Assembly (NCBI RefSeq): GCF_019464535.1
Contig: NZ_CP080507.1
Location: forward strand, 2,580,001-2,612,000
Reading direction: 5' to 3'
DNA length: 32,000 nucleotides
Origin: Horticoccus luteus
Lineage (GTDB): Bacteria > Verrucomicrobiota > Verrucomicrobiia > Opitutales > Opitutaceae
The notes beneath the pieces were generated by a model. It saw only the letters and a list, made by a program, of their open reading frames with translations. It did not search any database and had not been told where the DNA came from. Positions within the stretch are counted from its first letter, which is position 1. Each line of letters opens with the position of its first letter. Position numbers and translations under genes: made by a program. Shown here one piece after another: positions 3,711-30,935 of this stretch.

Positions 3711-3725
3711 AATCGTGGTCTCCCT

Positions 3726-4514: not shown

Positions 4515-4530
4515 AAATTGAAAATGAGGT

Positions 4531-7472: not shown

Positions 7473-7498
7473 GCGGCAAAGGCGGCTGCGCGGGCGGC

Positions 7499-11295: not shown

Positions 11296-11298
11296 GGC

Positions 11299-12366: not shown

Positions 12367-12371
12367 GGCGA

Positions 12372-13811: not shown

Positions 13812-13823
13812 GAAAAGAGGAAA

Positions 13824-16394: not shown

Positions 16395-16643
16395 GGGCGG
16401 GGAAAAACAAGACGCACGATCGCGGGGTGAAAAGCGGGCGTTGCGGCTCACTCGGGCGCGGAGGGAGGAGCGCAGAGAGTTACTGGTCGAAAAGAAAGGT
16501 GGAGGAAAAACTAATTCTGTCCTGAATTTCATTTTTCACCGTCCTGCGATGATCCACGAGAAATGCTCCACCCCGTCCGGTCGCGCTGCATCAGCGCACG
16601 GCCGCGTCGCCGCCGAGGGCAACGCGGGAAAAAACGACGGCGC
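16395..16643. promoter_or_regulatory. Divergent intergenic region: promoter for the nine-gene pectin operon (minus) and the rhombosortase gene (plus)
   Basis: 249-nt gap with a locally AT-rich core AAAAACTAATTCTGTCCTGAATTTCATTTTTCACC (about 16506-16540), including the small palindrome TGAATTTCA, and an inverted repeat GCGCTG-CAT-CAGCGC near 16584-16598. No consensus promoter can be assigned. Confidence 0.35.
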
Positions 16644-17267
16644 ATGAACGAACTGCAGACATCGCTGCGCCGTTTGTTCGCCCGGGACAAATTTCCGTGG
16701 GTGTTCCTTGCGCTGACGATCTTCGCCGTGGTGATTCAGCTCCATCCCGCTTGGCGCGCCGGGCTGATCTACGACCGCCGGGCGCTTCAACACGGAGAAA
16801 TCTGGCGGCTGTGGAGCGGCCATTTTGTGCATTTCGGCTGGCCGCACCTCGTCGCCGACGCAGGACTTTTCCTCATTCTCGGCCGCTTGCTGGAGCGCAA
16901 GTATCCCGTGGCGTTGCGCATTTCGGCGGTGCTGATGCCCGTCGTGATTTCCGTCGCGCTCTATACGTGCGACCCCGCCCTGGAACGCTATGCGGGCTTG
17001 AGCGCGGTCAATCTGGGCCTGCTGCTTTTCTACGCGTTTCAAGGCTGGCAGCGGAATCGGTGGGACTGGTTTTGGCCCACGATCCTCGCGATCTACATTG
17101 GCGAGGTTGTGCTCGAGGCGACACGCGGCCAAGGCCACGGCGGCGGATTCATTCAGTTCGACGATCCCAGCATCCATGTTGCCACCTCGGCGCACATTGC
17201 GGGAGGGCTTTACGGCTTCGCGCTGTGGTTGTGCTGTCGCCGACGCGCAAAACCGAACGCCGGCTGA
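16644..17267 (+). CDS. Rhombosortase-like intramembrane serine protease (rhomboid superfamily)
   Basis: A ~207-aa polytopic protein from the ATG at 16644. LIYDRRALQHGEIWRLWSGHFVHFGWPHLVADAGLFLILG matches the characteristic rhombosortase opening (YDR..I..GEWWRL.TGH.VH....HL..N). There is a candidate catalytic Ser in YAGLSAVNLGL and a candidate catalytic His in TSAHIAGGLYG. Confidence 0.65.
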   Translation: MNELQTSLRRLFARDKFPWVFLALTIFAVVIQLHPAWRAGLIYDRRALQHGEIWRLWSGHFVHFGWPHLVADAGLFLILGRLLERKYPVALRISAVLMPVVISVALYTCDPALERYAGLSAVNLGLLLFYAFQGWQRNRWDWFWPTILAIYIGEVVLEATRGQGHGGGFIQFDDPSIHVATSAHIAGGLYGFALWLCCRRRAKPNAG

Positions 17268-17466: not shown

Positions 17467-20400
17467 TCACGGGTTGACGTCGTAAATTTCGAGCAGGGCG
17501 ACGCCGCTGGTGTTATTCACTCCCGCCACATGCACGGTATAGACGCCGGGCTGGAGCGTCACGACCGCGGCGGCATCTTTGGTCGTATCGGAATCCAGCG
17601 CGAAGGCGCCGACCGACTGAGCCACGTCCTTGAGCGCGGTGGTGCCGCCCCAGTTGTCGTTCGTCGCGACCACGGTGGAACCTTGATACACCGTCAGCAT
17701 GGGATCCTGAAGCACGCTGGATGCACTCACCCCATAGGTGACGAGGGACGGTCCGACGCCGCGAATCAGCAGCTTCTTGGGCGCGTTACCCGTGATGACA
17801 AAGCCGGCGATCAAAATGCCATCGCCGGTCTTCGCCTCGGACCGCACGGAGACGTTTACGAAGTGCGCATCGCCGACGAGGGTGGCGTCGTAGACTTCAA
17901 GGAGTGCGAGACCGGCTGCCGTGCCCGTCGTGGTGATATGGCCGCTGTAAGCGCCCGCCGTGAGAGGCGCGAGCAACACCGCATCTTTCGAATTGGACGG
18001 GATGACAAACGCGCCGACTTCGGCGGTTTTGACCACGAGAGGCGCGGTGCCGCCCCAGTCATCGTTTTCAGCGATCTGCGTGGCCGAACCGTTGTCGAAG
18101 AGACGGATCTGCGGATCAGCGAGGACGGTCGCCGCCGGCACGCCATACGGCACCAAGCCGGGACCGATGCCGCGCACCAACACATCCTGGCTGCCGGAAC
18201 CAGCCACGACGAAGCCCATGATGAGCGTCTGGTCGAGTTTGCCGGCGCCGCTGCGCACCGAGAGATTCACGATGCGTGAGGTCGAGATCGCCGAGCCGCT
18301 CAACCCCGCGAAACTGATCGGCGTCGTCGCGCCCACGGGGAGAACACTCGCGGTGACGCTCTCGCTCTCCGGAGCGACCGAAACAGTGATTGCCGACGAG
18401 TTCGCGGTCGCAACCGTGAGCTGGCCGTTGGCATCGATCGTGCCGGTGCCGCCTCCAACCGAGCCAGGCGTGGTCGTGACGACCAAGGCCTGGCCGCTGG
18501 CTCCGATGACGGTGTAAACGCCGCCGTCGGAAGTGCCGAGGGCTGCGGCGGCATAGTAGCCGGCCACGCCCTGCGCCGCGCCCGTTGAAGGATCCGCCGC
18601 GCCGCTGAAGGTTTCATCCAAGCCTTCCAGTTGCCCCACCACACTCTGGTGAACGACGTGGCCCGTCAGTGTGAACTGGCCGGAAACAAGGGCCTGCGGC
18701 GCGTGCGTCCCGGCGATCGCCACTGTCGGCGTCGCGGTGCCGGTGGCGCGGATTTCGCTGCCGGTGACCGTGAAGCTGCCATCCGCGGCGAGGGTGACGT
18801 CCAAGACGATTACGCTCTGGCGCTGCGGCAGGTTCGCGATGAACACGCCGGTGTTGTCGGCATTGACCGACAATGCCCAATCGCCGCCCGCGGTGAATTG
18901 TCCGAAATAGATGCCCGTGAAGCTCGGGACTGTCGCCGTCAGCGATACGGAATCGCTGGTCACGGAGCCGGCCGCGTTGGTGACGACAACGGAGTAGCTT
19001 CCGGCATCGGTCACCGCCGTGGACGTGAACGCGAGGGTGGCACTCGTCGCACCGGCGATGGCGACGCCGTCCTTGCGCCACTGATAGGTAAACGGACCGG
19101 TGCCGCTCGCGACGACCGAGAAGCTGGCGGCATCGCCAACACTGACCGACTGCCCCACCGGCGCGGTGGCGATCGCCGGCGCAATGATCAGCGGGTTGAC
19201 GGTGAGGGTTGTCGTGGCCGTGGCGTTTTTGTAATTAGCGGAATCAGTTGGCGTGAACGCGACGCTGAGGGTCTGACCGACGCCAGCACCGAGCACGGTG
19301 CCCGCAGGCGGCGTATAGACGAACGCTCCGGCCACATTCGCTGAGGCGTTGAGCTGCGTGGCGCCGAGCGCAGTGCCCGCCGTAATCGCCGCTGGCGCCG
19401 ACCACGTGATGGCCGGCGTGGCCTTGTTCACTGTGAGCGAAACGGTGGCGGTTGCGTTTGTATAATGAACCAAATCCGTCGGTGTGAACGTGACGCTCAA
19501 TGTCTGGCTGCCCGCCGCGAGCACCGCGCCCGAGGCCGGCGTGTAGACGAAGGCGCCCGCGACGTCGGCGGTGGCGTTGAGTTGCGTGGCACTCAAGGCG
19601 GTGCCGTAGCCAATCGCGGCCGGCGTAGCCCAAGTCAGCGTCGGCGTGACCGGCGTAGGCGGCACATCGCTCGTGACCACCGTAATGGTGGCGCTCGCGC
19701 CGCTGGTGCCGGCAGCGTTGGTCGCGCGGATACGGTAGTAATACGTGGTGCTCGCGGAGAGGCCGGTGACGCTGGCGTTCAGCGCGGCGCCGACGTCGAG
19801 ATCGGCATAGCCGGCAACCAGGTTCGTGAAGCTGTCGTTGGTGGACACATCAAGGCGGTAGCCAGTCGCCGTCGGCGCGCTGTTCCAGTGCGCCGTGAAA
19901 CCGGCCACCGTGACACTCGTGGCTGCACTGGCGACGGGCGCAGCGGGAGGCAAGTTGACGGTCAGCACGGCGGCACTCGAGGTGATCGCGCTGACGGTGT
20001 TCGTGACCACAACGGTGTAATTGCCAGCGTCGCCCGCTTGCACATTCGCAAGATCGAGGATCGGGCCGGTGGCGCCAACCACATCGGCGCCGTCATGTTT
20101 CCATTGGTAGGTAAACGGTCCCGTGCCGGCGGCGACCACGGCAAATTCCACATCGCTGCCGATCGCCACCGACTGGGATTGTGGCTGCGTCGTTATCGAC
20201 GGCGCGGTGGCCGCAATCACGGTGAGGGCTGCGCCGTTACTGGTGATGTTGCCGCCAGTGTTGGCGACCACGACCGAATAGGTGCCGATATCGGCGAGCG
20301 TGGTGGCGGAGATCGTCAGCACGGCGGTGGTGGAACCCGAAATATGCGCACTGTCGGAGAGCGCAGTGCCGTCTTTCTTCCATTGATAGGTCGCCGTCGT

Positions 20401-23400
20401 GCCGCTGGTGACCTGGACCGTGAAGGTGGCGTCGGCGCCGGTGGCGACGGTCTGGCTCTGGGGTTGCGCGGTGATGGTGGGCGCGCCGGACGTATCGACG
20501 GTGTAGGCCGTTTTGAGCCAGTTGTCTTTGCTCCACGTGAGCGTGCCGGCGCCAGAGCCCGCCGCGAGAATGGCGGGCAACTGCGCGGGATCGTCCATCG
20601 TGTAGTCGTAGGGCAGTTGATTGTTCGGCAGGTCCCACACGAACGGAATCACCGGCGCTTGGAACGGTCCCATCGGGTTGTTCGCATCGGTGCTGTTGCC
20701 GCGCACGGTCGTGAGCGTGCCATCGGGAGCGTGGAAGCTGTAGATGGAATCGAGGGCCTTGATCTTGCCGGTGTAGATGGCGCTCGACGGATCCGTCTGG
20801 TTGTTGCGCAGCGGCCAGAGGCAGTCCGCGTAGATCGATTTCTCGACAAGGATCGAGCCGTTCTCCGTGGAGATCGTGCCGTTGATGGGCGGATTGAAAC
20901 TGTAGGTGTTGTTGAGCGTGTTGAGCAGCGCCGAACTCAGCGACGCGGCGCGCGCATCGCGCAGACGTTTCGCCGCGAGCAGCTCAACGTCGTCAACGTA
21001 GATGTTGTAATCATGGACGTTGCCGCCGCGGAGACGGGGCACGACGCGGTCCCAGACGTTCTTGAACCATTGGTGATGGAACGTCGCCGTGAGCGAGTCG
21101 TTCTCCGCTTTCAGCGAGTTGGAACCCATCAAATGCCCTTTGTCGTGGCCTTGGATGATGGTGGCGATGTCGTCGACGGAATAGCCGTTGGTCCGCAGGA
21201 AATTGTAGAACGGATAAGACGAACGCTTCGCTTCGAGCGCGGCGAGTTGCACGCGCACCGGGCTGTTGGGGTTCGTCGCCTCGTCGTCGCCGATGTATTT
21301 GCACCACGAAAGCGTAGCGTTGGTCGTCCCGGCCTTGAGGTCGACGATGCCGTCGTAGGCCTTGGTGAACGTGCAATGATCGATCCAGATGTTGGACACG
21401 TCGCCGCCGTTGCTGACGGTGATGAAATCCCAATCGTTGGAATCGTAATTGCCTTTGGAGGCCTCGTCCCACTCCCACATTTCGTCGAACTTGAGATTGC
21501 GGATGATGATGTTGGAGGTGCCCTTCACGTTGAAGTTGACGTGTTTGATCGTGACACCGGTCGCCGAGAAAATCGTGAGGGGACTCTTGGCCTTGATGTC
21601 GAGGACGCTGACGCCCGAGGCAATCAGAGCCGGGTGCAGCTTCGGCGTGGCGTGCGAGCGCAACGGATTGCTCGGCAGGCCTTGCACCGTGGCGCCGACC
21701 TCGATCCAGCCGAGGTTGAGGTCGTTCATGATCTCGATGACCTTCACCTTGCCGGCGGTCTTGTTGGAATCGGAGATGGCCTGGACGAACTCCTGCGCCG
21801 TGGTCACTTTGCGGTAGGCCGGATCGCTCTCCGGAATCACACCGCCACCGGTCGTGCCGGAACCGACCGTGGCGAAGCCGGTGAGATTGAATTCCGTGAC
21901 CGGGAGGGCCGACGCGAGGTTGAGCGCGACCGCGTCGCTGATGACGGATCCGGCCGCATTCGAAACGGTCACCGCGTAATTACCGGTGTCGCCCGCCTGC
22001 ACGTTGCTCACCGTGAGCGAACTAGTCGTGGCGCCAGCGAGGGTGTTGCCGTCCTTCTTCCATTGGTAGGTCAGCGGCGCGGTGCCGGTGGCGGTCACGG
22101 TGAAGGTGGCGTTGGTGCCGGCCGCGACGGTTTGCGCCAGCGGCTGGGCGGTGATGACCGGCATCTGCGGCGGCGCGACCTGCACGGTCAGCGTGGCGAC
22201 CGCGGAATCAACGACGCTCGCGGAATTGGTGGCCGTGAGCACGTAGTCGCCCGCATCGGCGAGTTGCACGGTGCTCAGCGTGAGCGTGGCGCTGGTCGCG
22301 CCGCTGATCGCCGAGCCGTTTTTCTTCCATTGATAGGTCAGCGGGTCCGTGCCGGTGGCAGCGGCGGTGAAGGTGACGTTGGCCCCTTCAGTCACGGAGG
22401 TGGATTGCGGCTGCGTGGTGAACACCGGCGGCGTGGCGACCGTGACGGTGAGCACCGCGGCGGCGCTCGTGGCCGAGCCGAGATCATTGGTGACAACAAC
22501 GGTGTAACTGCCGGCGTCGCCCGAGGTGAGGTTGGTCAGCGCGAGCGTGGCGGAGGTGGCGCCGCTGATGGCGACGTTGTCTTTTTGCCACTGGTAAGTG
22601 AGCGGATTCGTGCCGCTGGCGACCACGGTGAACGCTGCACTTCCACCAAGCGCGCCCGCCACCGAAGCGGGTTGCGTGTCGATGGACGGTGCGGACGGGC
22701 CGGCGGCCTCGATGCTGTAAGAGAGTCCGGTGATCGTCAGGGCGTTGAAGGAGTTCGACCCTCCCGCAATGCGCACCGCGAGTTGATCGTAGGTGCCGTT
22801 GGCGCGCGAATCGGTGGTCGTGTCCGTGCCCGTGAGGACGTAGTTGGACAATCCGCCGCCCGTCAGCGTCGCCGTCAACTCACTGGATTCGGAGAGGCGC
22901 GCGACAACATAGGTGAGCGTGTAGGTCGTGGAGGCCGTGAACGCGGCCGTCGTGCCGGAAGGGTTGGCGGCCACCAAGTCGGTGTAGAGCGTGGCGCCGG
23001 TCGAACCCATCAACGTGGTGTTCGTCGAACCGGGAATGCGGGCGAGAAGCTTACCGGCGCCCGAGTCGATGTTATAGGAAGCGACGTAACCCATGTCGTC
23101 CGTGACGACGGAGTTCGTTTCCGTATTGGCGCTCGCGGTGACGCGGGTGCCGTTGGCGTTGAAGAGACCGAAGCGAAGCGCGTTGGGGGCGACCGCGACA
23201 TTGCTGCCCATCTGAAACACGAGCGTGAGCGTCAACTTTTGCCCCACGGCGAGGTTGATGGCGTTGGGCAGGTAGGTGACGAAACTGGAGGCGGAAGCCT
23301 GGCCTTCGTTGAAGGTGATGCTGTTCACGCCCGTCGTGAGGGTGTCGGCGGTGCGGGTCTTGAACCAAGTGAGTTGGGAGGCATCGAGCGTCGTGGTGGC

Positions 23401-26400
23401 CGCGCCAGCGGTGACGACCGAGATGACATTCGACGATCCGCTGGTTCCGGCGGCGTGGACCGCGCGAACGCGGTAATAATACGCGGTGCCGGAACTGAGG
23501 CCGGTGAGCGCGCGGCTGAGATCGGAACCGACGGCGAGGTCCTGGTAGCCAGAGACGAACGTGTCGAAATTGCTGCTGGAGGAAACGTCGAGGCGGTAGC
23601 TGGTGCCTCCGCTGACCGCGGACCACGAGGCGACGAAACCGGTATTGGAAACGGCAGTGGCCGCCGCCGCCACGGGAGCTTCCGGAGAATCCGTGACCGT
23701 CAACGTCGCGACGTCGCTCGTGACACTGTCAATGCTGTTGGTGACAACGACCGTGTAACCGCCGGCGTCACTGCTCTGCGCGTTGGCGACCGTATAAGCG
23801 CCGCCGGTGGCGCCGGAGATCGGCGAACCATCCTTTTTCCATTGGAACGTAAACGGCGCCGTGCCGCTCACCACGACGGAGAACGTGGCCGAGCCACCCA
23901 CGTAAACGGACTGCGCAGCCGGTTGCGTCGTGACCGACGGGCCGGTCGCCGCGCCGACCGTCACCGTGACGGCGTCGCTGGTCGTGTGGCCCGCGGAATT
24001 GGTGATCGTGATCGTGTAGCTGCCGGAATCGGCCACTTGGGCCGCGGCGAGCGCGAAGGAAGAATTCGTGGCGCCGCCGATCGCCGACCCGTCTTTCGAC
24101 CACTGATACGTGAAGGGCGCGGTGCCTTGCACCGACACGGAGAGCGTCACGGCTGCGCCGGTAATCACCGACTGACCTTGCGGCGCGGTCACAATGACCG
24201 GAGGCGTGTGGAGATAAGTTTCAACGGCACCAATGTCCGGCGCGTCTTCATAATAGCCGGCCGTCGCGAACGGGAACTGGCCGATCACGTCGCCCGGCGG
24301 GAGGACGCCCGCGTTGAGCAGCGGGCTGTTCGCGACCGGCCGGGCGAAATCGCCGAGCGCGATGCTGCCATCCGCGTTGCGCGCGAAGCCGCCGACCGGG
24401 ACGGTCAACGTGACGAACGCCGTTTTGTAAGCGGTGAGGCTGGCGTCGTTGATGCTGGGACCGCGGCTGGAAGAGCCGACGAACCAGAAGATATTGCTGG
24501 CCCCGGTGGGGACGCCGCTGTTGCCGACGTAGCGGTCGTTGACGCCATTGCGGTTGCCCGGACCGGAGCTGGTCGTCCAGAGGGAAATGTTGTTATAGAA
24601 CGTGGCCTCGCCGGAATCGAATTTGAAGTTTCCCTCGACGTTGTCCCACGCCAGATTGTTGACGAGGACGATGGCGCCGGGGTTGCTGTTCCACGTGAAT
24701 CCGTTCTTACCATTGTTAAAGCTGATGCAGCGGGAGACGTAGTGGGCGACGGCGATTTTCTCGCCGCCGAGTTTGAAGCCGTTGCGATCACCGGCGGCGT
24801 TTTGCGTGCCGTCGGTCAGCGTGCCGTTGTTATAGGAAATGCACTGGTCGAGGACGACCGGATCGATCGGGCCCGTCTCGCTCTTCGTATAAAGATCCCA
24901 CCCGTCGTCGATATTGTTGTGCGAAATGCAGCCGCGGAATACATTGCCGGCACCGGCGGTGAGTTTGCACGCGAAGCCGTCGGCGTTTTCGCCACTGCCA
25001 GGGGCGACGTCGCAGTTGTCGTAGGACTCGCAGTTGAGAATCAAGTTGTAGGTCGGCCATTCGGAGCGGGGCGCCGACGACGAATAGCGGCCGATCTGGA
25101 GGCCCGTATCCCGGTTGCCGTGCAGGCGGCACAGCTCGACGATATTGTGATTGCCGACGACGTAGACGCCGTTGTCCGCGGCGTTTTTGATTTCCAGACC
25201 TTTCAGGTGCCAGTAGTCGCCGCCGAGCCAGACACCGCGCGGGTTGCTGACAGTGGAGGGATTGCCGTAGGGCTGGGAGGAGAAGTCGAACACCGGCGTT
25301 TCGGCGGTGCCGCCCGGTGGGACGTAGGCGACGAGATTCTTAAGCGCACCATCCGTGCCATTATTACCGCGCTCGATGCGCAACTCCGTGGACATCGCGT
25401 AAGTGCCACCGCGCACAAAAATCGTGCCGCCTGCGGGCACCAGCGCGATGGCGTTGGCGAGCGTCGTCGGCTGCGCGAACGTGCCGGGGTTGTCCACGAG
25501 ACCGTCCGGAGCCACGAAGATCGAGCCTTCGCCGACCGCGGGCGGTTCGGTCACGGTGAGCGCGACGGGATCGCTCGTGACGCTGCTGGCGGCATTCGTG
25601 ACGACAACGGTGTAGTTACCCGCCGCCGTGAGTTGGACGTTGGTCAACGTCAGTGTCGGCGCGGTCGCGTCGGGGATGTCGGCGTTGTCTTTCCGCCATT
25701 GATAAGTGAAAGGCGCGCTGCCCCCGGCAGTGACACTGAAGCTCACGGCGCCGCCAATGACGACGGATTGCGAGCCGGACTGGGCAAGGACGACCGGCGG
25801 CGTCACCACGCCGGTGAGATCGAGCGATGCGACCGCGCTCGTGTCGGAGCCCGCGCTGTTGCTAACGACAACGGTATAGGCGCCGGCGTCGGCAGGTTGC
25901 ACGTTGTTCAACGTGAGCGTGTCGGAAATCTCGTCGGCAATCGCCGTGCCATTCTTCCGCCATTGATAACTGAGCGGCGCCGTGCCGGTCGCCGTGATGG
26001 TGAAGGTCACCGTCGCGCCGCTGTCGACGGTCTGCGACTGGGGTTGCGTGACGACCTGCGGCGCGTTGACGACGGTGGAAATCGTGAGCGTGGCGGGCGC
26101 GCTCGTGACGCTGCCTTTGCCGTTGGTGACAACGACGGTGTAATCGCCCGCGCTGGTATCCTGCGCACTGGCGATGGTGAGCGCGGCGGAAGTTTCGCCG
26201 GAAAGCGGTGAGCCATCTTTGCTCCACTGATAGGTGAACGGGGCATCGCCGCTGGCCGCGACGGTGAAAGTGACCGCCGAGCCCAGATCGACGGTTTGCG
26301 CGGCGGGCTGCGTGGTGATCACCGGGCTGCCGTCGGCGACCGCCGTCATCGAGACGGAGACGTTGTCGATGGCGATCGTGTCGTTGGACGTGGTCGAGGA

Positions 26401-29400
26401 CGTCGCGCTGTTGGCGGTTTTCCAGCGAAACCAAATCGTGGCGCCATCAGCCACCGTAACGGCAACAGGACCGCTGGTCAGGGTGGCGGTTTTGCCCACG
26501 GAGCCGCTGGCCGAGGTGAAGGCGAGGTCGCTCAACGTCGTCCAGCCGGACGTGGCATTGAGATCGGTGGACGTAGCGCCGATCCGGTATTCAACCGTGA
26601 ACGTCATATCCCGACCGGTGGTGTTTTCCCGCCACTGCTCGGGTGTGTAAGTGAGCGTGAACGAATCGAGGACGCGCCCGGATTGATTGGTAAACGCGAG
26701 ACCGAGGTAGGTCGGCGCTGTGTTAAGGCGCGTGTGATACGCGAGCGCGCGGTCGGCGTTGCCAGCAGTCCCAATGCTGCCGAGCGTGAGATCGGCGAGA
26801 TTGGATGAACCGTCGTTCGTCACGCCTGTGGCATTGAGCGAACCGGTGGTCGGGACGGCGTGCCAACCAGGCAGCGTGGAATCGTTGACCCAGGCAAAGG
26901 TGCCCGACGACGGCAGTGTGTCGAAATTCTGGGTATAAGCGGTGCCGCCGAGGCTGTAGGTGCGGTCGGCTGTCGCGCCGGTGTTGACGATTACGATATC
27001 GGCCGCCGCCGCCGAAGTCGCGATCGTCGCGGCAGTCGAAGAGGCACTGGTGCCCGCGGCGTTGATCGCCCGCACCCGGTAGTAATAGTTGGTGCCGGCA
27101 GTCAGGCCGCTGATCGCGCGAGAAAGGTTGGTGCCCACGTCGAGGTCGTTATAGCCGGCGACGAACGAGGAAAAATCGCTGCTGGTGGAAACGTCGAGCC
27201 GGTAGCCGGTGGCTTCGCTGACCGCGGCCCAGTTCGCGGTGAACCCCGTGCCGGTGACATTCGTGGACCCGAGCGTCTGCGGGACATCCGGAGGCGTGCC
27301 AGCCGGCATCACCGTGAGGACGGCGGCGGCGCTGGTGACGCTGCCGTGGGAATTGGTGGCCGTGACCGTGTAACTCCCGCCGTCCGCCGATGTGGGCGAG
27401 CCGATACTCAAGGTCGCCGCCGTGGCACCATCGATCGGGCTGCCGTCCTTGTTCCACTGATAAGTCGCCGCCGGCAGAGCCGCCACGGTGACGCCAAAGG
27501 TTGCCCCCCCCCCCGCCTGCGTCGTAACGGAAACCGGCGCGGAGAGCACGAGCGGCGCCAAAGCCGGCGTCCACGCACTCATCACATCGCCGGCCAGCGA
27601 GGTGTTCAACACCCACACCGGGTCATTATAGTTTGCGACTTGGGCGTCGTTGGCGGGCGAGGTCCACTGGTACGACCATGCAGCGCGCTGGCTGACATCG
27701 ACCGGGGAATTGTCGCTGATCTTGCGCGGATTGAACTCGACGCAATTGGTGGCGGCGGCACCGGAGACCGTCTGACCATTAAGGTTCCACGCCACGGGCA
27801 GGATATGGTCGCCTTCGGTGCTGTTGATCAGCACGACTTCGGTGTGCGGATTGGCGTTCTGGTCGAGCCGACCGAGGTAGCACCCACTGACCGGGTTCGC
27901 GGGATTCTGGCTGTCGGCGTCGGCGGAACTGAACTTGCAGTCCACGTAAACGAAGCCGTGGTTCGTCGCGGGATTCCGGATCTGGGTGTAATAGCTTTGA
28001 ATGCTGAGGGCTTTGAGTTCGCAGTTCGTGAAATAGACCGGGCCGTTGCCCCACATAAAGTCGGTGTCGCCTTCTATATAGCTGTCGCTGATGTAGGCCT
28101 GGCCATTGATGAGCAGCGTGTCCTGATAACTGGAGAGATTGACGTGAGTGATCACGGCCTGCAGCGCGGTCGCAGAGCCGCTGAGATAAAGCGCCTCGGC
28201 CTGCGAGCCCGTCTTCGGGGTGAAGTTCTTGATCGTCAGGTTGGTGATGACCATGCCCGTGCTGTTGCCTCCGCGGCAGGTGAAGGCCGCACGCCACGCG
28301 GTGCCGGTGGGATTGAAATTATTGTTGTTCGGATAACCGATCACCACTCCGTCGCGGCTTTGGCCGAGGAAGGTGATGTTGCTCTTCGCAGTCCAAGAAA
28401 CGATTTCGTAGTAAATGCCGTTTTTGATATAAATGGTCGTTGGCGTGGTGTTGTTAGCGGGAATGAAATCCAGGGCGCCCTGCACCGTGTAAAAATCGCC
28501 GGACCCGTCGTGCGCGACAGTGAGGCGGGTCGAACCAGCGTCGGGCGCGGCGGCTTTGGTGGAGAAGCGCCAAGTCGTGTTGTCGCTGAAACCGACGAAG
28601 GTTGCGCCGCTCGCGTCCACGATCGTCCCGGCGTCGATGGTCACATAGTAGGTCTTGCCGTAGGTGAGCGTGCCGTCGCGGGGATAGACCGTCAGCGTAT
28701 TCCCGTCGATCGTCACGGGGTAATAGCGCAGGCCGGTCTGGCCACCGACCGTCTTGGTCTGCACGGGCAACGCCAAAATGGAGGCGTTGGCGACGCGTGC
28801 GGCCGCGGCGTCAAAGCTGATCGTGTCGACGGGCGTGGAGGGATTGGCGGAGTCGAAAATCTTGAGCGAGCCCGAGACGCCCGCCGTGATCGGAGCGTTG
28901 AACGTGATCGTCAGCGGCTGATCGGGAAACACGGCCGAAGCGTTGTTCGCCGGGGCGGTGTTCGTGGTTGCGAGCGCGGTTGAAAGGACGTTGACGGCAG
29001 CGGTCGCGCTGGTGGCGGAGCCCGCGGCGTTAGTCGCCACGACGGTGTAGTTGCCCGTAGCGGCCCCCGTAGCCGAGGCGATGGTGTAGCTTGCGCTGGT
29101 CGCACCGTTGAGAACGACGTTGTTCAATTTCCACTGATAAGTGGGAACGGGCGTCCCAACAGTGGCGGCCGCGGTCAGCGTTAAAGACTGTCCGGCCTGA
29201 AGATTACCGCCGACCGGTTGCAGGGTGAACGAAGGCACTTGGTTGACGGTCAACTCCGCAGCGGCACTGGTCGCGGCACCGACCGAATTGGTCACGGTGA
29301 CGCGATATGATCCGGCGTCGGAAAGTTGCGCGGGCCCCACGACCAGCGTGGCGTCAACGGCATTGGTCAAATCCGCCCAGTGTGCCCCGGCATCCACGCT

Positions 29401-30675
29401 CTTTTGCCATTGGTACGCGAGGGGCGCAGTGCCGCTGGCGCTAACGGCAAACGTGTTGGACGCGCCCACCAAAATTGTAGCGGCCTGCGGATCGGTCTGC
29501 ACCGAGGGGGCCACAGCCCCTGCCGTCACCGCGACAGTGCAAGCGGCACTCGTCGTAGAACCAGCGGCATTGCCGATGATGACATGGTACTGCCCTTCAT
29601 CCGACGTCTGCACCGAGGTGAGCACAAGCGTGGCAGTAGCGGCGGAGCCGTTGGCGCCTGCGTTGATTGGCACAAAAGTCGCACCGCCATCGGTGCTCTT
29701 TTCCCATTGGTAAATCACTGCACTACCAACAGCCGTGCTCGTGATGGAAAGCGTGTCGCCCACGGAGCCGGTCAGCGTCGCGGGAGGTTGCCCCGTCACC
29801 GCAGCGAAATACGGCGGCGACGTCAAACCAACCACATCGGTCATGGTGATCGTAGCGGCGGCGGCCGCATCATTTCGAAAATAGAACGCGAATTCGTTGA
29901 ACGTCTTCGGTGCCGTGACCGCGGTGGCCGCAGCGCTGTAGATGGCCTGATAGGACGTGCCGGCGCCGACGGCCGACGAGTCTTCAATCACGAGCCCCGC
30001 ATTGGCGTAGGAAGAGGACGTACCAAGGCTGAACGCGCCGGAAGACGTTAGGGCGACGCGGAATGTGATGTTGACGAAGGAGTCGTCAGCGAGTGTCCAC
30101 GCGCCAACGGAACCGGCCGACTTGCCCGAGCCCAGCTTGAGCGCGCTTTGATAGCCGTCGAGTAGGCCAGCAATGGTGGTTGTGCCGCCAAAGACCTCGT
30201 TGCCCCATGTGCCACCTTTGAAGTTGGCGAACAAGCCGTTGTCGTCGGCAAAATTACCCGCCGCACCGGGCGGCGTGCCGCCGTCGCTAAACAAGCCAAG
30301 TTGATTGACGCGATTGCCGGTGATGGCGTTGGTCCAACCCGCAGAACTCTTCATCTTGTAAGAGATCGTTTGGAGCGAAGTGCCAGCCGTCGGCACCTCC
30401 ATCGCGATAGGCACGAAATTGGTGGTCACGAAGACCATTCTTCCGCCTGCAGGCACGGAAAACGTGTAAGTGCCGGATCCCGGATCGAATGTCGCCGCCT
30501 GATTCTGTGTGCCGACAAGTGCGCCGGTATTGTCGTAGGCGGTCCACCGCAATTGGGCATGGAGCGGCGAAACTAAAACGCCCAGCGCCACCAAGAAAGT
30601 CGCAGTCACGAGCGCGCGAAAAAGTATAGCCGATACGGACATACACACGACGGATGAATATCTGGAGAGACTCAT
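17467..30675 (-). CDS. Giant secreted multi-catalytic pectin-degrading protein (CE8 + PL9-like + PL1 modules on an Ig/FN3 scaffold), about 4,400 aa
   Basis: A single uninterrupted frame. The track start at 30774 is TTG. I prefer the ATG at 30675 or 30642, giving MSLSRYSSVVCMSVSAILFRALVTATFLVALGVLVSPLHA|QL as the signal peptide. The domain map is listed as separate features below. The C-terminus (...LLEIYDVNP) has no TM segment, LPXTG, PEP-CTERM or GlyGly-CTERM. Confidence 0.9.
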   Translation of the reverse strand: MSLSRYSSVVCMSVSAILFRALVTATFLVALGVLVSPLHAQLRWTAYDNTGALVGTQNQAATFDPGSGTYTFSVPAGGRMVFVTTNFVPIAMEVPTAGTSLQTISYKMKSSAGWTNAITGNRVNQLGLFSDGGTPPGAAGNFADDNGLFANFKGGTWGNEVFGGTTTIAGLLDGYQSALKLGSGKSAGSVGAWTLADDSFVNITFRVALTSSGAFSLGTSSSYANAGLVIEDSSAVGAGTSYQAIYSAAATAVTAPKTFNEFAFYFRNDAAAAATITMTDVVGLTSPPYFAAVTGQPPATLTGSVGDTLSITSTAVGSAVIYQWEKSTDGGATFVPINAGANGSAATATLVLTSVQTSDEGQYHVIIGNAAGSTTSAACTVAVTAGAVAPSVQTDPQAATILVGASNTFAVSASGTAPLAYQWQKSVDAGAHWADLTNAVDATLVVGPAQLSDAGSYRVTVTNSVGAATSAAAELTVNQVPSFTLQPVGGNLQAGQSLTLTAAATVGTPVPTYQWKLNNVVLNGATSASYTIASATGAATGNYTVVATNAAGSATSATAAVNVLSTALATTNTAPANNASAVFPDQPLTITFNAPITAGVSGSLKIFDSANPSTPVDTISFDAAAARVANASILALPVQTKTVGGQTGLRYYPVTIDGNTLTVYPRDGTLTYGKTYYVTIDAGTIVDASGATFVGFSDNTTWRFSTKAAAPDAGSTRLTVAHDGSGDFYTVQGALDFIPANNTTPTTIYIKNGIYYEIVSWTAKSNITFLGQSRDGVVIGYPNNNNFNPTGTAWRAAFTCRGGNSTGMVITNLTIKNFTPKTGSQAEALYLSGSATALQAVITHVNLSSYQDTLLINGQAYISDSYIEGDTDFMWGNGPVYFTNCELKALSIQSYYTQIRNPATNHGFVYVDCKFSSADADSQNPANPVSGCYLGRLDQNANPHTEVVLINSTEGDHILPVAWNLNGQTVSGAAATNCVEFNPRKISDNSPVDVSQRAAWSYQWTSPANDAQVANYNDPVWVLNTSLAGDVMSAWTPALAPLVLSAPVSVTTQAGGGATFGVTVAALPAATYQWNKDGSPIDGATAATLSIGSPTSADGGSYTVTATNSHGSVTSAAAVLTVMPAGTPPDVPQTLGSTNVTGTGFTANWAAVSEATGYRLDVSTSSDFSSFVAGYNDLDVGTNLSRAISGLTAGTNYYYRVRAINAAGTSASSTAATIATSAAAADIVIVNTGATADRTYSLGGTAYTQNFDTLPSSGTFAWVNDSTLPGWHAVPTTGSLNATGVTNDGSSNLADLTLGSIGTAGNADRALAYHTRLNTAPTYLGLAFTNQSGRVLDSFTLTYTPEQWRENTTGRDMTFTVEYRIGATSTDLNATSGWTTLSDLAFTSASGSVGKTATLTSGPVAVTVADGATIWFRWKTANSATSSTTSNDTIAIDNVSVSMTAVADGSPVITTQPAAQTVDLGSAVTFTVAASGDAPFTYQWSKDGSPLSGETSAALTIASAQDTSAGDYTVVVTNGKGSVTSAPATLTISTVVNAPQVVTQPQSQTVDSGATVTFTITATGTAPLSYQWRKNGTAIADEISDTLTLNNVQPADAGAYTVVVSNSAGSDTSAVASLDLTGVVTPPVVLAQSGSQSVVIGGAVSFSVTAGGSAPFTYQWRKDNADIPDATAPTLTLTNVQLTAAGNYTVVVTNAASSVTSDPVALTVTEPPAVGEGSIFVAPDGLVDNPGTFAQPTTLANAIALVPAGGTIFVRGGTYAMSTELRIERGNNGTDGALKNLVAYVPPGGTAETPVFDFSSQPYGNPSTVSNPRGVWLGGDYWHLKGLEIKNAADNGVYVVGNHNIVELCRLHGNRDTGLQIGRYSSSAPRSEWPTYNLILNCESYDNCDVAPGSGENADGFACKLTAGAGNVFRGCISHNNIDDGWDLYTKSETGPIDPVVLDQCISYNNGTLTDGTQNAAGDRNGFKLGGEKIAVAHYVSRCISFNNGKNGFTWNSNPGAIVLVNNLAWDNVEGNFKFDSGEATFYNNISLWTTSSGPGNRNGVNDRYVGNSGVPTGASNIFWFVGSSSRGPSINDASLTAYKTAFVTLTVPVGGFARNADGSIALGDFARPVANSPLLNAGVLPPGDVIGQFPFATAGYYEDAPDIGAVETYLHTPPVIVTAPQGQSVITGAAVTLSVSVQGTAPFTYQWSKDGSAIGGATNSSFALAAAQVADSGSYTITITNSAGHTTSDAVTVTVGAATGPSVTTQPAAQSVYVGGSATFSVVVSGTAPFTFQWKKDGSPISGATGGAYTVANAQSSDAGGYTVVVTNSIDSVTSDVATLTVTDSPEAPVAAAATAVSNTGFVASWSAVSGGTSYRLDVSSSSNFDTFVSGYQDLAVGSDLSRALTGLSSGTAYYYRVRAVHAAGTSGSSNVISVVTAGAATTTLDASQLTWFKTRTADTLTTGVNSITFNEGQASASSFVTYLPNAINLAVGQKLTLTLVFQMGSNVAVAPNALRFGLFNANGTRVTASANTETNSVVTDDMGYVASYNIDSGAGKLLARIPGSTNTTLMGSTGATLYTDLVAANPSGTTAAFTASTTYTLTYVVARLSESSELTATLTGGGLSNYVLTGTDTTTDSRANGTYDQLAVRIAGGSNSFNALTITGLSYSIEAAGPSAPSIDTQPASVAGALGGSAAFTVVASGTNPLTYQWQKDNVAISGATSATLALTNLTSGDAGSYTVVVTNDLGSATSAAAVLTVTVATPPVFTTQPQSTSVTEGANVTFTAAATGTDPLTYQWKKNGSAISGATSATLTLSTVQLADAGDYVLTATNSASVVDSAVATLTVQVAPPQMPVITAQPLAQTVAAGTNATFTVTATGTAPLTYQWKKDGNTLAGATTSSLTVSNVQAGDTGNYAVTVSNAAGSVISDAVALNLASALPVTEFNLTGFATVGSGTTGGGVIPESDPAYRKVTTAQEFVQAISDSNKTAGKVKVIEIMNDLNLGWIEVGATVQGLPSNPLRSHATPKLHPALIASGVSVLDIKAKSPLTIFSATGVTIKHVNFNVKGTSNIIIRNLKFDEMWEWDEASKGNYDSNDWDFITVSNGGDVSNIWIDHCTFTKAYDGIVDLKAGTTNATLSWCKYIGDDEATNPNSPVRVQLAALEAKRSSYPFYNFLRTNGYSVDDIATIIQGHDKGHLMGSNSLKAENDSLTATFHHQWFKNVWDRVVPRLRGGNVHDYNIYVDDVELLAAKRLRDARAASLSSALLNTLNNTYSFNPPINGTISTENGSILVEKSIYADCLWPLRNNQTDPSSAIYTGKIKALDSIYSFHAPDGTLTTVRGNSTDANNPMGPFQAPVIPFVWDLPNNQLPYDYTMDDPAQLPAILAAGSGAGTLTWSKDNWLKTAYTVDTSGAPTITAQPQSQTVATGADATFTVQVTSGTTATYQWKKDGTALSDSAHISGSTTAVLTISATTLADIGTYSVVVANTGGNITSNGAALTVIAATAPSITTQPQSQSVAIGSDVEFAVVAAGTGPFTYQWKHDGADVVGATGPILDLANVQAGDAGNYTVVVTNTVSAITSSAAVLTVNLPPAAPVASAATSVTVAGFTAHWNSAPTATGYRLDVSTNDSFTNLVAGYADLDVGAALNASVTGLSASTTYYYRIRATNAAGTSGASATITVVTSDVPPTPVTPTLTWATPAAIGYGTALSATQLNATADVAGAFVYTPASGAVLAAGSQTLSVTFTPTDLVHYTNATATVSLTVNKATPAITWSAPAAITAGTALGATQLNASANVAGAFVYTPPAGTVLGAGVGQTLSVAFTPTDSANYKNATATTTLTVNPLIIAPAIATAPVGQSVSVGDAASFSVVASGTGPFTYQWRKDGVAIAGATSATLAFTSTAVTDAGSYSVVVTNAAGSVTSDSVSLTATVPSFTGIYFGQFTAGGDWALSVNADNTGVFIANLPQRQSVIVLDVTLAADGSFTVTGSEIRATGTATPTVAIAGTHAPQALVSGQFTLTGHVVHQSVVGQLEGLDETFSGAADPSTGAAQGVAGYYAAAALGTSDGGVYTVIGASGQALVVTTTPGSVGGGTGTIDANGQLTVATANSSAITVSVAPESESVTASVLPVGATTPISFAGLSGSAISTSRIVNLSVRSGAGKLDQTLIMGFVVAGSGSQDVLVRGIGPGLVPYGVPAATVLADPQIRLFDNGSATQIAENDDWGGTAPLVVKTAEVGAFVIPSNSKDAVLLAPLTAGAYSGHITTTGTAAGLALLEVYDATLVGDAHFVNVSVRSEAKTGDGILIAGFVITGNAPKKLLIRGVGPSLVTYGVSASSVLQDPMLTVYQGSTVVATNDNWGGTTALKDVAQSVGAFALDSDTTKDAAAVVTLQPGVYTVHVAGVNNTSGVALLEIYDVNP
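17470..18280 (-). repeat. Giant protein: C-terminal tandem duplication of a ~130-aa unassigned module
   Basis: Unit 1: RIVNLSVRSGAGKLDQTLIMGFVVAGSGSQDVLVRGIGPGLVPYGVPAATVLADPQIRLFDNGSATQIAENDDWGG...AGLALLEVYD. Unit 2: HFVNVSVRSEAKTGDGILIAGFVITGNAPKKLLIRGVGPSLVTYGVSASSVLQDPMLTVYQGSTVVATNDNWGG...SGVALLEIYD. The two units are colinear. Confidence 0.7.
18285..18930 (-). other. Giant protein: unassigned module X3
   Basis: GIYFGQFTAGGDWALSVNADNTGVFIANLPQRQSVIVLDVTLAADGSFTV...GQFTLTGHVVHQSVVGQLEGLDETFSG... I recognise no motif. Confidence 0.35.
18935..19185 (-). repeat. Giant protein: Ig-like domain 15
   Basis: Core: FTYQWRKDGVAI...DAGSYSVVVTNAAGSVTS. Confidence 0.75.
19190..19665 (-). repeat. Giant protein: two tandem ~78-aa beta-sandwich repeats
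   Basis: First unit: LTWATPAAIGYGTALSATQLNATADVAGAFVYTPASGAVLAAGSQTLSVTFTPTDLVHYTNATATVSLTVN. Second unit: ITWSAPAAITAGTALGATQLNASANVAGAFVYTPPAGTVLGAGVGQTLSVAFTPTDSANYKNATATTTLTVN. Confidence 0.7.
19680..19950 (-). repeat. Giant protein: FN3 domain 3
   Basis: VTVAGFTAHWNSAPTATGYRLDVSTNDSFTNLVAGYADLDVGAALNASVTGLSASTTYYYRIRATNAAGTSGAS. Confidence 0.75.
19955..20490 (-). repeat. Giant protein: Ig-like array 5 (2 domains)
   Basis: Cores: ATYQWKKDGTAL, FTYQWKHDGADV. Confidence 0.75.
20500..21905 (-). other. Giant protein: PL1 pectate lyase module
   Basis: FATVGSGTTGGG, IIIRNLKF, NIWIDHCTF, YDGIVDLK, HDKGHLMGSN and TFHHQWFKNVWDRVVPRLRGGNVHDYNIYV correspond to the PL1 motifs vWiDH, DG..D and R.P..R.G..H..NN. 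Confidence 0.8.
21915..22690 (-). repeat. Giant protein: Ig-like array 4 (3 domains)
   Basis: Cores: LTYQWQKDNVAI, LTYQWKKNGSAI, LTYQWKKDGNTL. Confidence 0.75.
22705..23405 (-). other. Giant protein: unassigned module X2 (lectin/CBM-like?)
   Basis: LTWFKTRTADTLTTGVNSITFNEGQ...LTLTLVFQMGSN...NALRFGLFNANGTRV...YDQLAVRIAGGSNSFNALTITGLSYSIE. The composition and layout are similar to X0. Confidence 0.4.
23415..23685 (-). repeat. Giant protein: FN3 domain 2
   Basis: VSNTGFVASWSAVSGGTSYRLDVSSSSNFDTFVSGYQDLAVGSDLSRALTGLSSGTAYYYRVRAVHAAGTSGSS. Confidence 0.75.
23690..24205 (-). repeat. Giant protein: Ig-like array 3 (2 domains)
   Basis: Cores: FTYQWSKDGSAI, FTFQWKKDGSPI. Confidence 0.75.
24215..25530 (-). 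other. Giant protein: PL9-like right-handed beta-helix pectate lyase module
   Basis: IFVAPDGLVDNPGTFAQPTTLANAI...GGTIFVRGGTY is followed by parallel beta-helix turns containing GENADGF, NIDDGWDL, NGFKLGG and GKNGFTWNSN. These motifs are as I recall for PelL/Pel9A-type (PL9) lyases. Confidence 0.6.
25560..26335 (-). repeat. Giant protein: Ig-like array 2 (3 domains)
   Basis: Cores: FTYQWSKDGSPL, LSYQWRKNGTAI, FTYQWRKDNADI. Confidence 0.75.
26345..26995 (-). other. Giant protein: unassigned module X1
   Basis: YTQNFDTLPSSGTFAWVNDSTLPGWHAV...GNADRALAYHT...FTLTYTPEQWRENTTGRDMTFTVEYRIG...WFRWKTANS...NDTIAIDNVSV. It is beta-rich with no catalytic motif that I recognise. Confidence 0.4.
27010..27300 (-). 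repeat. Giant protein: FN3 domain 1
   Basis: VTGTGFTANWAAVSEATGYRLDVSTSSDFSSFVAGYNDLDVGTNLSRAISGLTAGTNYYYRVRAINAAGTSASS. Two further copies are at about 23415-23685 and 19680-19950. Confidence 0.75.
27310..27545 (-). repeat. Giant protein: Ig-like domain 4
   Basis: VSVTTQAGGGATFGVTVAALPAATYQWNKDGSPIDG...ADGGSYTVTATNSHGSVTSAAAVLTV. Confidence 0.75.
27504..27514 (-). repeat. Homopolymeric G tract (C tract on the plus strand) inside the giant CDS
   Basis: I count 10-11 consecutive C by eye. The continuous translation ...TTQAGGGATFGV... and the alternative-frame ORF 27149-27616 (...RYDAGGGGGNLW...) both require 11. It encodes the Gly run at the start of the Ig domain after CE8. Confidence 0.8.
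27775..28530 (-). other. Giant protein: CE8 pectin methylesterase module
   Basis: LTVAHDGSGDFYTVQGALDFIP, QAEALYL, SYQDTLLI, IEGDTDFMWG and CYLGRLD correspond to the CE8 motifs QAVAL, QDTL, DFIFG and LGRPW. The Trp of LGRPW is not conserved. Confidence 0.8.
28555..28975 (-). other. Giant protein: bacterial Ig-like (SbsA/Big_5-like) module preceding CE8
   Basis: APANNASAVFPDQPLTITFNAPI...GSLKIFDS...YYPVTIDGNTLTVYP...GKTYYVTIDAGTIVD...TWRFST has the pattern typical of SbsA-type Ig-like domains. Confidence 0.5.
28985..29800 (-). repeat. Giant protein: Ig-like array 1 (3 domains)
   Basis: Three ~88-aa units, each with a [AVT]xYQW[EQK]K core and a C-terminal D[AE]G.Y.V.V.N..G..TS strand pattern (I-set-like). 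Confidence 0.75.
29805..30555 (-). other. Giant protein: N-terminal unassigned beta-rich module (X0)
   Basis: About 250 aa after the signal peptide (LRWTAYDNTG...NRVNQLGLFSDGG...FAFYFRNDAAAAATITMTDVVGL). I recognise no catalytic motif. It resembles module X2 (NALRFGLFNANG...) in composition and layout. Confidence 0.4.
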
Positions 30676-30935
30676 AAGAAAGGGGCCGACTGTCGGGAAA
30701 CCTGATGAGGTTCGACGAGAGACAAAGAAGCTGGGAAAGACGCAGGGACTAAGGGGGCGAACACGTGAATCCAACGAACAAGTCCGTTAAACAACAAGGC
30801 GCGCGCCGTGCGCATCGTTGACCAGACGGGGTACGGAGCCGATCAAGTGTGCGACGCTCGTTTGATTATTCCAATGAACGAAATTCAAACGCTCGACCAA
30901 TGACGTTCAGATCGATTTTCACAGGAGACTTCACG
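30676..30935. promoter_or_regulatory. Upstream region of the giant gene (promoter expected)
   Basis: About 260 nt between the preferred start of the giant gene and the stop of the upstream TPR gene. It is less GC-rich (TTTGATTATTCCAATGAACGAAATTCAAACG) and has an inverted repeat TGAACG...CGTTCA around 30885-30910. No consensus can be assigned. Confidence 0.3.

Follow-up and report, generated by a model that had tools for sequence, protein, structure and literature searches.

A predicted 4,402-residue protein of Horticoccus luteus that joins three putative pectin-active catalytic modules to a widespread C-terminal module

How is a single bacterial gene of some 13 kb, which appears to encode a pectin methylesterase and two pectate lyases on one chain, to be understood, and how might a diderm cell export and retain such a product? 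The question is raised by a stretch of 32,000 nucleotides of Horticoccus luteus (Verrucomicrobiota, Opitutaceae; NCBI RefSeq assembly GCF_019464535.1, contig NZ_CP080507.1, positions 2,580,001 to 2,612,000), the whole of which we call the window and in which the gene occupies positions 17467 to 30675 of the minus strand. We estimate at about 80% the probability that the product is one "beads-on-a-string" pectinase, exported by the Sec pathway and located outside the cell or on its surface, in which predicted CE8, PL9 and PL1 modules are spaced by immunoglobulin (Ig)-like and FN3 domains and followed by a C-terminal module that many otherwise unrelated proteins share.

The open reading frame (ORF) listing and the translation showed a single unbroken minus-strand ORF of 4,402 amino acids (aa) counted from the first ATG; when a TTG start is used, the listing extends the frame to 17467..30774, or 4,435 aa. 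The 4,402-aa product starts with MSLSRYSS and has a predicted mass of about 0.44 MDa, and its signal peptide is the sole hydrophobic segment of the whole protein (Kyte-Doolittle(19) of at least 1.6). The Pfam scan of the full protein returned 14-15 Ig_3/I-set stretches and three fn3 stretches, and repeat mapping resolved 15 Ig copies and three FN3 copies (aa 1125-1222, 2327-2424 and 3573-3670). Together with one Big_5 domain before the esterase and two HYDIN/MBG-like Ig repeats of about 78 aa, the spacers total 21 Ig/FN3-type beta-sandwiches. Five stretches, which we call Nterm, unkA, unkB, CtA and the C-terminal repeat, had no Pfam match. An earlier note on this DNA, made from the sequence alone, had described one uninterrupted frame of about 4,400 aa with a Sec signal peptide, 15 Ig-like and three FN3 domains and several unassigned modules between the catalytic units; all of this was borne out, and the strand, which it did not state, is the minus strand. 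The modules are as follows, with coordinates in the window.

17467..30675, minus strand: whole gene, 4,402 codons plus stop; an alternative upstream TTG at 30774 adds 33 aa
30553..30675, minus strand: signal peptide (aa 1-41), with a basic n-region, the hydrophobic core ALVTATFLVALGVLV and then LHA/Q; no lipobox Cys
29791..30552, minus strand: Nterm module (aa 42-295), no family match; homologues start the stand-alone CE8 enzyme of related locus L080 (31%) and the CE8 cassette of related locus L001 (32%)
28990..29802, minus strand: Ig-like domains 1-3 (aa 292-562), from Pfam and repeat mapping
28543..28989, minus strand: Big_5 bacterial Ig-like domain (aa 563-711), in relatives always immediately N-terminal of the CE8 module
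27586..28530, minus strand: CE8 pectin methylesterase module (aa 716-1030), with QAEAL (from 824), YQDT (850), DTDFMWG (870) and YLGRL (933)
27010..27582, minus strand: Ig 4 (aa 1032-1121) and FN3 a (aa 1125-1222), from Pfam and repeat mapping
26356..27003, minus strand: unkA module (aa 1225-1440), N-terminal on PL9 and PL1 enzymes that stand alone; EEP-type nuclease-like proteins carry distant copies
25552..26355, minus strand: Ig 5-7 (aa 1441-1708), from Pfam and repeat mapping
24226..25533, minus strand: PL9 beta-helix pectate lyase module (aa 1715-2150), with NADGF (from 1897), IDDGWD (1922) and NGFKLGG (1965)
23404..24225, minus strand: Ig 8-9 (aa 2151-2326) and FN3 b (aa 2327-2424), from repeat mapping
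22711..23403, minus strand: unkB module (aa 2425-2655), with a predicted L-type lectin / ConA-like jelly roll; candidate carbohydrate-binding module
21916..22716, minus strand: Ig 10-12 (aa 2654-2920), from Pfam and repeat mapping
20500..21903, minus strand: PL1 pectate lyase module (aa 2925-3392), with NDWDF (from 3080), WIDH (3097), YDGIVD (3107), HDKGH (3177) and PRLRGG (3213)
19675..20508, minus strand: Ig 13-14 (aa 3390-3572) and FN3 c (aa 3573-3670), from repeat mapping
18934..19674, minus strand: two HYDIN/CFAP65/MBG-like Ig repeats of about 78 aa (aa 3668-3822) and Ig 15 (aa 3821-3914)
18259..18933, minus strand: CtA (aa 3915-4139), first half of the shared C-terminal module of about 490 aa
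17470..18258, minus strand: tandem beta-sandwiches resembling PPC and collagen-binding domains (aa 4140-4402), ending in GVALLEIYDVNP-COOH; candidate tether or sorting module

All three catalytic assignments were supported by profile hidden Markov model (HMM) searches, by alignment with solved structures and by motifs. The first module matched Pfam Pectinesterase (PF01095) over aa 718-965 (E 1.5e-27, 96.6 bits against a cutoff of 27) and the solved pectin methylesterases 3UW0, 1XG2 and 1GQ8 (E from 1e-17 to 5e-16). The catalytic set of CE8 enzymes consists of two Gln (oxyanion), two Asp and one Arg, with roles known from the carrot and Dickeya methylesterases, and lies in the motifs Q-A-x-A-L, Y-Q-D-T, D-F-I-F-G and G-R-x-W. 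The window protein keeps QAEAL, YQDT, DTDFMWG and LGR, which aligned with 3UW0 and 1XG2 and account for this whole set.

The second module matched the NCBIfam PelX family (NF041903) over aa 1718-2111 (E 1.7e-51) and Pfam Beta_helix over aa 1814-2007 (32 bits against a cutoff of 25.9), and aligned with Pel9A (1RU4) over query residues 15-330 (E 9e-38). The active site of Pel9A is a Ca-binding cluster of four Asp with a catalytic Lys in the GFKLGG motif, and the ADGF, DDGWD and GFKLGG of the window protein matched the ADGF, DDGFD and GFKLGG of Pel9A column by column. The third module matched Pfam Pectate_lyase_4 (PF00544; E 1.5e-13, 51-56 bits against a cutoff of 24) and aligned over its full length, at 55-60% identity, with PelN (5GT5; E 8e-124, query 14-477 against chain residues 6-446). 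In PL1 enzymes the Ca-binding acidic residues and the catalytic Arg/Lys lie in the motifs vWiDH, DGxxD, K-G-H and R-x-P-R-x-R-x-G; NDWDF, WIDH, YDGIVD, HDKGH and VPRLRGGNVH were all kept and aligned to PelN. Judged by these conserved motifs, all three modules look functional, and the earlier claim of CE8, PL9-like and PL1 modules, each with the catalytic motifs of its family, is confirmed; failure of two or more of these assignments in HMM searches, which the note had named as refuting, did not occur.

The relatives of the protein show how it is built. With the PL1 module as query, 79 loci, labelled L001 onward, were found in 185,579 species genomes; almost all belong to Verrucomicrobiota, the nearest being Opitutia, Lacunisphaera and Didemnitutus; the best relative, an Opitutia-type metagenome-assembled genome (MAG), is 83% identical over PL1. 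Most loci encode enzymes of about 1,200-1,300 aa with a targeting module, three to four Ig domains, PL1 and Ig. The stand-alone PL1 cassette (unkB or unkA, Ig, PL1, Ig) accordingly exists in dozens of copies, while L080 is a stand-alone CE8 cassette (Nterm-like, four Ig, Big5, CE8, Ig) and P0122, of 913 aa, a stand-alone PL9 cassette (unkA, Ig, PL9). These forms end in FYRLRLGP or LRVTQP, where the window protein has FN3 and the next cassette instead. Because each third thus has a stand-alone, single-enzyme counterpart, the giant reads as a cassette fusion: it is an in-frame concatenation of three single-enzyme cassettes of about 900-1,300 aa each elsewhere in related bacteria.

Other fusions of the same cassettes were also found. 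L001 (JAFEGO010000094.1, 86657-108090) has an ORF that runs without a stop from one end of its 21.4-kb locus to the other; this amounts to more than 7,144 aa, and the N-terminus and full extent of the protein lie beyond the analysed stretch. In it phmmer, together with BLAST and HMM searches of the gap segments, mapped modules collinear with those of the window protein, CE8-PL9-PL1 among them (Nterm-like 32%, unkA 66%, unkB 48%, PL1 83% and C-terminal repeat 46% identity) and, in addition, a further CE8 upstream (at least two CE8 modules in all), a GH28 cassette and 11 He_PIG domains. L003 encodes 5,299 aa in the order CE8-PL1-PL9-PL1, with a PL1 79% identical to that of the window protein, and L004 and L028 encode PL9-PL1 proteins of about 3,200 aa. 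The earlier note had read the order of modules as following the chemistry, demethylation before cleavage. CE8 does come first in all three tri-catalytic proteins (window, L001 and L003), and to that extent the reading holds; the order of the lyases is swapped in L003 and the three examples are related by descent, so that they are not independent observations. Since lyase order varies and descent is shared, the argument from order to chemistry is weakly supported, and we downgraded it as an adaptive rule.

The part of the protein that bears most directly on export and retention is its C-terminus. The last 490 aa or so, CtA and two PPC-like repeats, form a shared module with more than 3,012 matches among 8,000 scored candidates. 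Its carriers are signal-peptide proteins (P0001-P0120 and P0160-P0301 among them) that otherwise carry unrelated domains, among them NHL propellers, beta-helices, PQQ dehydrogenases, matrixins, cyclophilins, CAP domains and esterases. When 1.84 billion representatives were searched with a profile, the C-terminal repeat was found in 19,036, of which 10,826 matched at E of 1e-30 or lower. The module ends at most seven residues from the C-terminus in 118 of 120 proteins, and in 204 of the 256 proteins examined for their tail the chain stops exactly three residues past a conserved E-x-Y (consensus EVYEVP-COOH); the last residue is Pro in 69%, and the near-invariant tail can be written E-[VI]-Y-E-[VLM]-P-COOH. 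In L016 (JANYBX010000055.1) the PPC-like pair lies towards the N-terminus of two stop-to-stop ORFs (1,122 and 430 aa), which could be mis-framed segments or departures from the terminal position.

The final 263 aa were modelled by AlphaFold2 (AF2) as two repeats with a pLDDT of 94. The best Foldseek match was to the tandem collagen-binding domains of ColG (5IKU; E 2.4e-6, probability 1.0), and the PPC domain 5SV5 was also matched (probability 1.0, TM-score 0.66 normalised to the target). At the sequence level the segment passed the NCBIfam model NF038127, "DVUA0089 family" (32.7 bits against a cutoff of 29), while Pfam, PPC (PF04151) included, gave no match even at E 5 and a profile search against PDB sequences gave nothing. 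The literature searched held no description of the DVUA0089 family or of the C-terminal module, which is without functional annotation beyond the bare NCBIfam family name.

According to the earlier note the protein had no recognisable anchor. For the sorting signals that it named this is correct: no LPXTG motif or transmembrane (TM) helix was seen on reading the C-terminus, no match to PEP-CTERM (PF07589) occurred in the whole protein, no Por_Secre_tail or other C-terminal domain (CTD) family of the type IX secretion system (T9SS) appeared in Pfam and NCBIfam scans of the whole protein and of its C-terminal 488-493 aa, and the chain, which ends in GVALLEIYDVNP, has no C-terminal Gly-Gly motif with TM helix and basic cluster of the GlyGly-CTERM kind. 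The claim missed, however, the shared module. A strict C-terminal position with a fixed tail is a pattern typical of a tethering or sorting domain, and the module most likely serves as a tether to the cell envelope or substrate, or in recognition at export. It is possible, although we hold it doubtful, that the unit of about 490 aa serves Opitutia and other Verrucomicrobiota as a hitherto undescribed C-terminal domain for sorting or for attachment to the cell surface, functionally similar to the T9SS CTD, and that the giants are cell-anchored "single-polypeptide pectinosomes"; the window protein and its relatives of more than 7,000 aa would then be a diderm, scaffold-free counterpart of the cellulosome. 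Many relatives (L009-L070, L004, L023, L025, L027, L080 and P0122) carry another recurring C-terminal domain, which ends in RFYRIQLGP, FFRLRVTR or LRVTQP and is often also closed by Pro; this could represent a second type of C-terminal module among such bacteria.

Among the modules that precede the catalytic units, unkB could be given a fold. Its AF2 model (pLDDT 84.7, pTM 0.85) matched legume lectins in Foldseek at probability 1.0 and TM-scores of 0.55-0.6, and almost all of the top 50 matches (TM-scores 0.5-0.6) were L-type lectins or lectin-like domains (legume lectins, arcelins, and the carbohydrate-recognition domains of Emp46p/47p), with 7-12% identity to lectins; no significant sequence match was found in Pfam, NCBIfam or PDB. 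The module is present in 56 ORFs of the 79 PL1 loci. A profile query also found it alone in signal-peptide proteins of about 300-340 aa, and P0135, P0140, P0141, P0145, P0146, P0150 and P0156 carry a PEP-CTERM sorting signal. Because the family also exists as such small proteins, several with PEP-CTERM, unkB would appear to be an autonomous, surface-displayed, lectin-like module and, on its modelled fold, a plausible carbohydrate-binding module (CBM).

A concatenated Nterm, unkA and unkB query returned unkA relatives only. Close copies of unkA occur only on related pectinases, and distant unkA-like domains (P0131, P0134) form the N-terminus of proteins of about 900-1,000 aa with an endonuclease/exonuclease/phosphatase domain (PF03372). 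Since these distant copies sit on PF03372 proteins, unkA is not specific to pectinases. Nothing significant was found for Nterm, unkA or CtA in Pfam, NCBIfam and PDB sequence searches, and hhalign detected no relationship between Nterm, unkA and unkB.

If these parts work as their families suggest, the protein would leave the cytoplasm by its Sec signal and cross the outer membrane probably by a type II system. The CE8 module would strip methyl esters from homogalacturonan, and the PL9 and PL1 modules, as Ca2+-dependent beta-eliminases, would cut the de-esterified chain into unsaturated oligogalacturonides. The 21 sandwiches would be spacers that keep the three active sites close to one polymer, along a stalk that could reach about 80-100 nm if extended (21 sandwiches of about 4 nm each, an estimate from general domain dimensions). 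Nterm, unkA and the lectin-like unkB would be non-catalytic jelly-roll modules that stand before each catalytic unit and target the enzyme to polysaccharide, and CtA with the two PPC-like sandwiches would tether it to the cell envelope or substrate or be recognised at export. The chain would thus combine putative enzymatic activities, a presumed synergy between modules and a C-terminal module of predicted location and role. Its products would pass to the adjacent gene cluster, to a GH105-GH28 fusion, GH28, PL10, esterases, two MFS transporters, a KduD-like SDR and a UxaE-like enzyme. The genes of this cluster and those that flank it are the following.

1824..16532, minus strand: pectin-utilisation cluster, adjoining the giant gene on the same strand, with products of predicted cytoplasmic or periplasmic location
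13824-16532, minus strand: GH105(GH88)+GH28 fusion, 902 aa
12372-13811, minus strand: MFS transporter
11299-12456, minus strand: PL10 lyase
8872-11295, minus strand: CE8+GDSL+alpha/beta-hydrolase (BD-FAE-like) fusion, 807 aa
7499-8962, minus strand: GH28
6096-7502, minus strand: MFS transporter
4531-6099, minus strand: GH43
3726-4580, minus strand: SDR, KduD-like
1824-3710, minus strand: weakly UxaE-like protein (tagaturonate epimerase; match 6e-8), 628 aa
576..1634, plus strand: LacI-family regulator at the far end of the cluster, its putative regulator
16563..17267, plus strand: rhombosortase, 234 aa (TIGR03902, 112 bits against a cutoff of 84; Pfam Rhomboid 1.2e-13)

The rhombosortase gene and the giant gene are arranged tail-to-tail, with 200 bp between the former and the stop of the latter. 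A minus-strand ORF of 294 aa at 16536-17420 was rejected as spurious by its codon-position GC and composition, the real gene there being the plus-strand rhombosortase. The rhombosortase itself was considered as the sorting enzyme of the giant and was rejected as well: no GlyGly-CTERM tail occurs in the window, the giant has no C-terminal TM helix, and no rhombosortase was found in any of the 79 related loci.

Several observations weigh against a three-enzyme pectinase displayed outside the cell. The CE8 module is divergent: it scored 96.6 bits with only profile positions 2-244 of the 298 of PF01095 matched, its C-terminal third has diverged, and where GRPW is usual it has LGRLD, without the Trp, so that the module could be weak or of altered specificity. 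The PL9 module scored 175 bits against a PelX equivalog cutoff of 1,490; it is not an equivalog, and no endo or exo mode is assignable to it. Nterm, unkA and CtA were left without an assigned fold or function by the sequence searches, and the PPC-like fold taken alone does not tell a tether from substrate binding or an export signal. The opposite-strand rhombosortase gene splits the giant gene from the pectin cluster, which makes co-regulation an assumption. Finally, no second assembly of the exact gene was found among the scanned genomes, where the best relative is the one that is 83% identical over PL1, and nothing was returned when the giant protein and three neighbouring ORFs, one of them spurious, were looked up by exact sequence.

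Four other explanations were weighed, and all are less likely than a single exported pectinase. That the giant is a polyprotein, exported and then cut in its linkers, or relieved of its C-terminal PPC-like module, to free CE8, PL9 and PL1 enzymes, is unlikely: each third is known as a separate enzyme elsewhere, the C-terminal module has the PPC fold, and secreted proteases typically lose their PPC domains once outside the cell, but the linkers are folded Ig and FN3 domains and not disordered, no protease site or self-cleaving module was seen, and the fusion is kept in L001 and L003 despite divergence (PL1 83% and 79% identical). Because it persists in both over considerable divergence, selection for linkage is suggested. 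The Ig stalk and the lectin-like modules could also belong to a giant adhesin that mainly attaches the cell to plant or algal walls, its catalytic modules being accessory or partly degenerate. About 60% of the length is indeed non-catalytic (Ig, FN3, lectin-like and unassigned modules), the C-terminal module is common to many passengers that are not carbohydrate-active enzymes (CAZymes), and CE8 is divergent; we nevertheless regard this as improbable, for catalytic and Ca-binding motifs are kept in all three modules, PL1 is 55-60% identical over its full length to a characterised lyase fold, and the gene adjoins a complete pectin catabolic cluster.

Confinement to the periplasm, where a multi-enzyme that crosses the inner membrane only would act on imported oligomers, is in keeping with a Sec signal as the only export signal that could be demonstrated and with the failure to find any of the known outer-membrane or surface sorting signals in Pfam, NCBIfam and a reading of the C-terminus. 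A long stalk, endo-type lyase folds and lectin-like modules would better fit attack on an insoluble external polymer, however, and the cluster already supplies smaller signal-peptide-bearing enzymes suited to the periplasm, so that we consider this very improbable. Hardly credible is an artefact, whether a chimeric assembly across the Ig repeats or a merger of adjacent genes by sequencing errors that removed stops. The gene is strongly repetitive at the domain level, but no two Ig copies are more than 60% identical in aa or 71% in nucleotides, and because they are so diverged, repeat-driven misassembly is unlikely; exact direct repeats within the 13.2-kb gene reach 19 nt at most. GC by codon position is uniform and like that of the neighbours (GC3 0.805, against 0.76-0.78 in adjacent genes), no internal signal peptides or start contexts occur at the cassette borders, and collinear giant ORFs were found in independent MAGs.

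Comparison of this single exported pectinase with known systems showed familiar parts in a new arrangement. Bi-catalytic pectinases such as PL1-CE8 fusions are present in Firmicutes and Bacteroidota. Among multi-catalytic CAZymes, Caldicellulosiruptor bescii CelA (GH9-CBM3c-CBM3b-CBM3b-GH48) and CbXyn10C/Cel48B are known (PMC6892212). Like CelA, the window protein would carry complementary catalytic and binding modules on one secreted chain, with synergy through proximity; unlike CelA, it has three pectin-acting catalytic families (an esterase and two lyases), its spacers are 21 Ig/FN3-type domains instead of CBM3s and Pro/Thr linkers, and it is a 4,402-aa protein of a diderm Verrucomicrobium. 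It shares with the stand-alone Verrucomicrobial pectinases (L009-L070, P0122 and L080) the cassette order of targeting module, Ig spacers, catalytic module and Ig; these have one catalytic module and a C-terminal domain of their own, whereas the window protein fuses three and has a single, different C-terminal module. PelN is an alkaline PL1 pectate lyase of Paenibacillus sp. 0602 (PMC8091735), with which the window PL1 shares the motifs NDWD, WIDH, YDG(I/L)VD, KGH and PRLRGGN, but it is a free enzyme of 446 aa. The PL9 module has the beta-helix, ADGF, DDG(F/W)D and GFKLGG of Pel9A of Dickeya (Erwinia chrysanthemi, 1RU4) and of PelX (NF041903), although it falls far below the equivalog cutoff of the latter.

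Two C-terminal PPC-fold sandwiches on a secreted multi-domain enzyme are also found in clostridial ColG (tandem s3a-s3b, 5IKU), where the tandem collagen-binding domains anchor the enzyme to its insoluble substrate. The likeness to ColG and 5SV5 is at the level of the fold only (about 10% identity, TM-score 0.30-0.33 for the pair, no Pfam PPC match), and the window module, unlike that of ColG, occurs on unrelated passengers in about 19,000 clusters and has a fixed EVYEVP terminus. In its strictly C-terminal position on signal-peptide proteins with unrelated passengers the module resembles the T9SS CTD and the PEP-CTERM/exosortase and GlyGly-CTERM/rhombosortase systems, and a rhombosortase gene adjoins the giant gene. 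It differs from all of these in that the window protein has no C-terminal TM helix, PEP or GlyGly motif or CTD match, and the adjacency of the rhombosortase is not conserved.

The literature searched contained no description of a CE8+PL9+PL1 polypeptide or of giant Ig-rich Verrucomicrobial CAZymes, the Opitutia family of giant pectinases included. The earlier note had called the combination unusual; this stands as far as the literature searched is concerned, but the architecture recurs in related Opitutia MAGs, in some of them in larger form. The protein is thus a new architectural variant among multi-catalytic CAZymes, with conventional biochemistry and an architecture that recurs in public MAGs. 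Opitutia and other Verrucomicrobiota are abundant polysaccharide degraders of soil and freshwater, and little is known of how they deploy enzymes beyond the diderm envelope. The locus points to very large single polypeptides assembled from reusable cassettes of targeting module, Ig spacers and catalytic module; here a de-esterase is joined to two lyase families, and relatives add GH28. As a natural experiment it could show whether sequential pectinolytic activities attack native methylated pectin better when they are covalently linked, and it is a model on which multi-enzyme pectinases could be engineered. The function of the C-terminal module of some 19,000 clusters is a more open question than the catalytic architecture, and its strict terminal position and fixed tail make surface retention or export directly testable.

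Some minor observations concern the rest of the window. Two genes of the cluster are themselves multi-catalytic fusions (GH105+GH28 and CE8+GDSL+alpha/beta-hydrolase), and gene fusion seems a habit of this pectin locus. At 1767-3710, near-full-length ORFs overlap on both strands (1824-3710, minus strand, 628 aa; 1767-3689, plus strand, 640 aa); the minus-strand ORF alone has a UxaE match, a weak one (6e-8), so that the UxaE-like annotation is uncertain. A scan for promoter and terminator consensus at the 3' end found no sites, a result that says little for this phylum. Towards the upstream end of the window, GC drops from about 0.64 to 0.55-0.58 (positions 30001-32000), and the TPR-repeat gene at 30936-31943 (minus strand) has a GC3 of 0.60, against 0.76-0.80 in other genes; this low-GC upstream end may be the boundary of a region of different origin.

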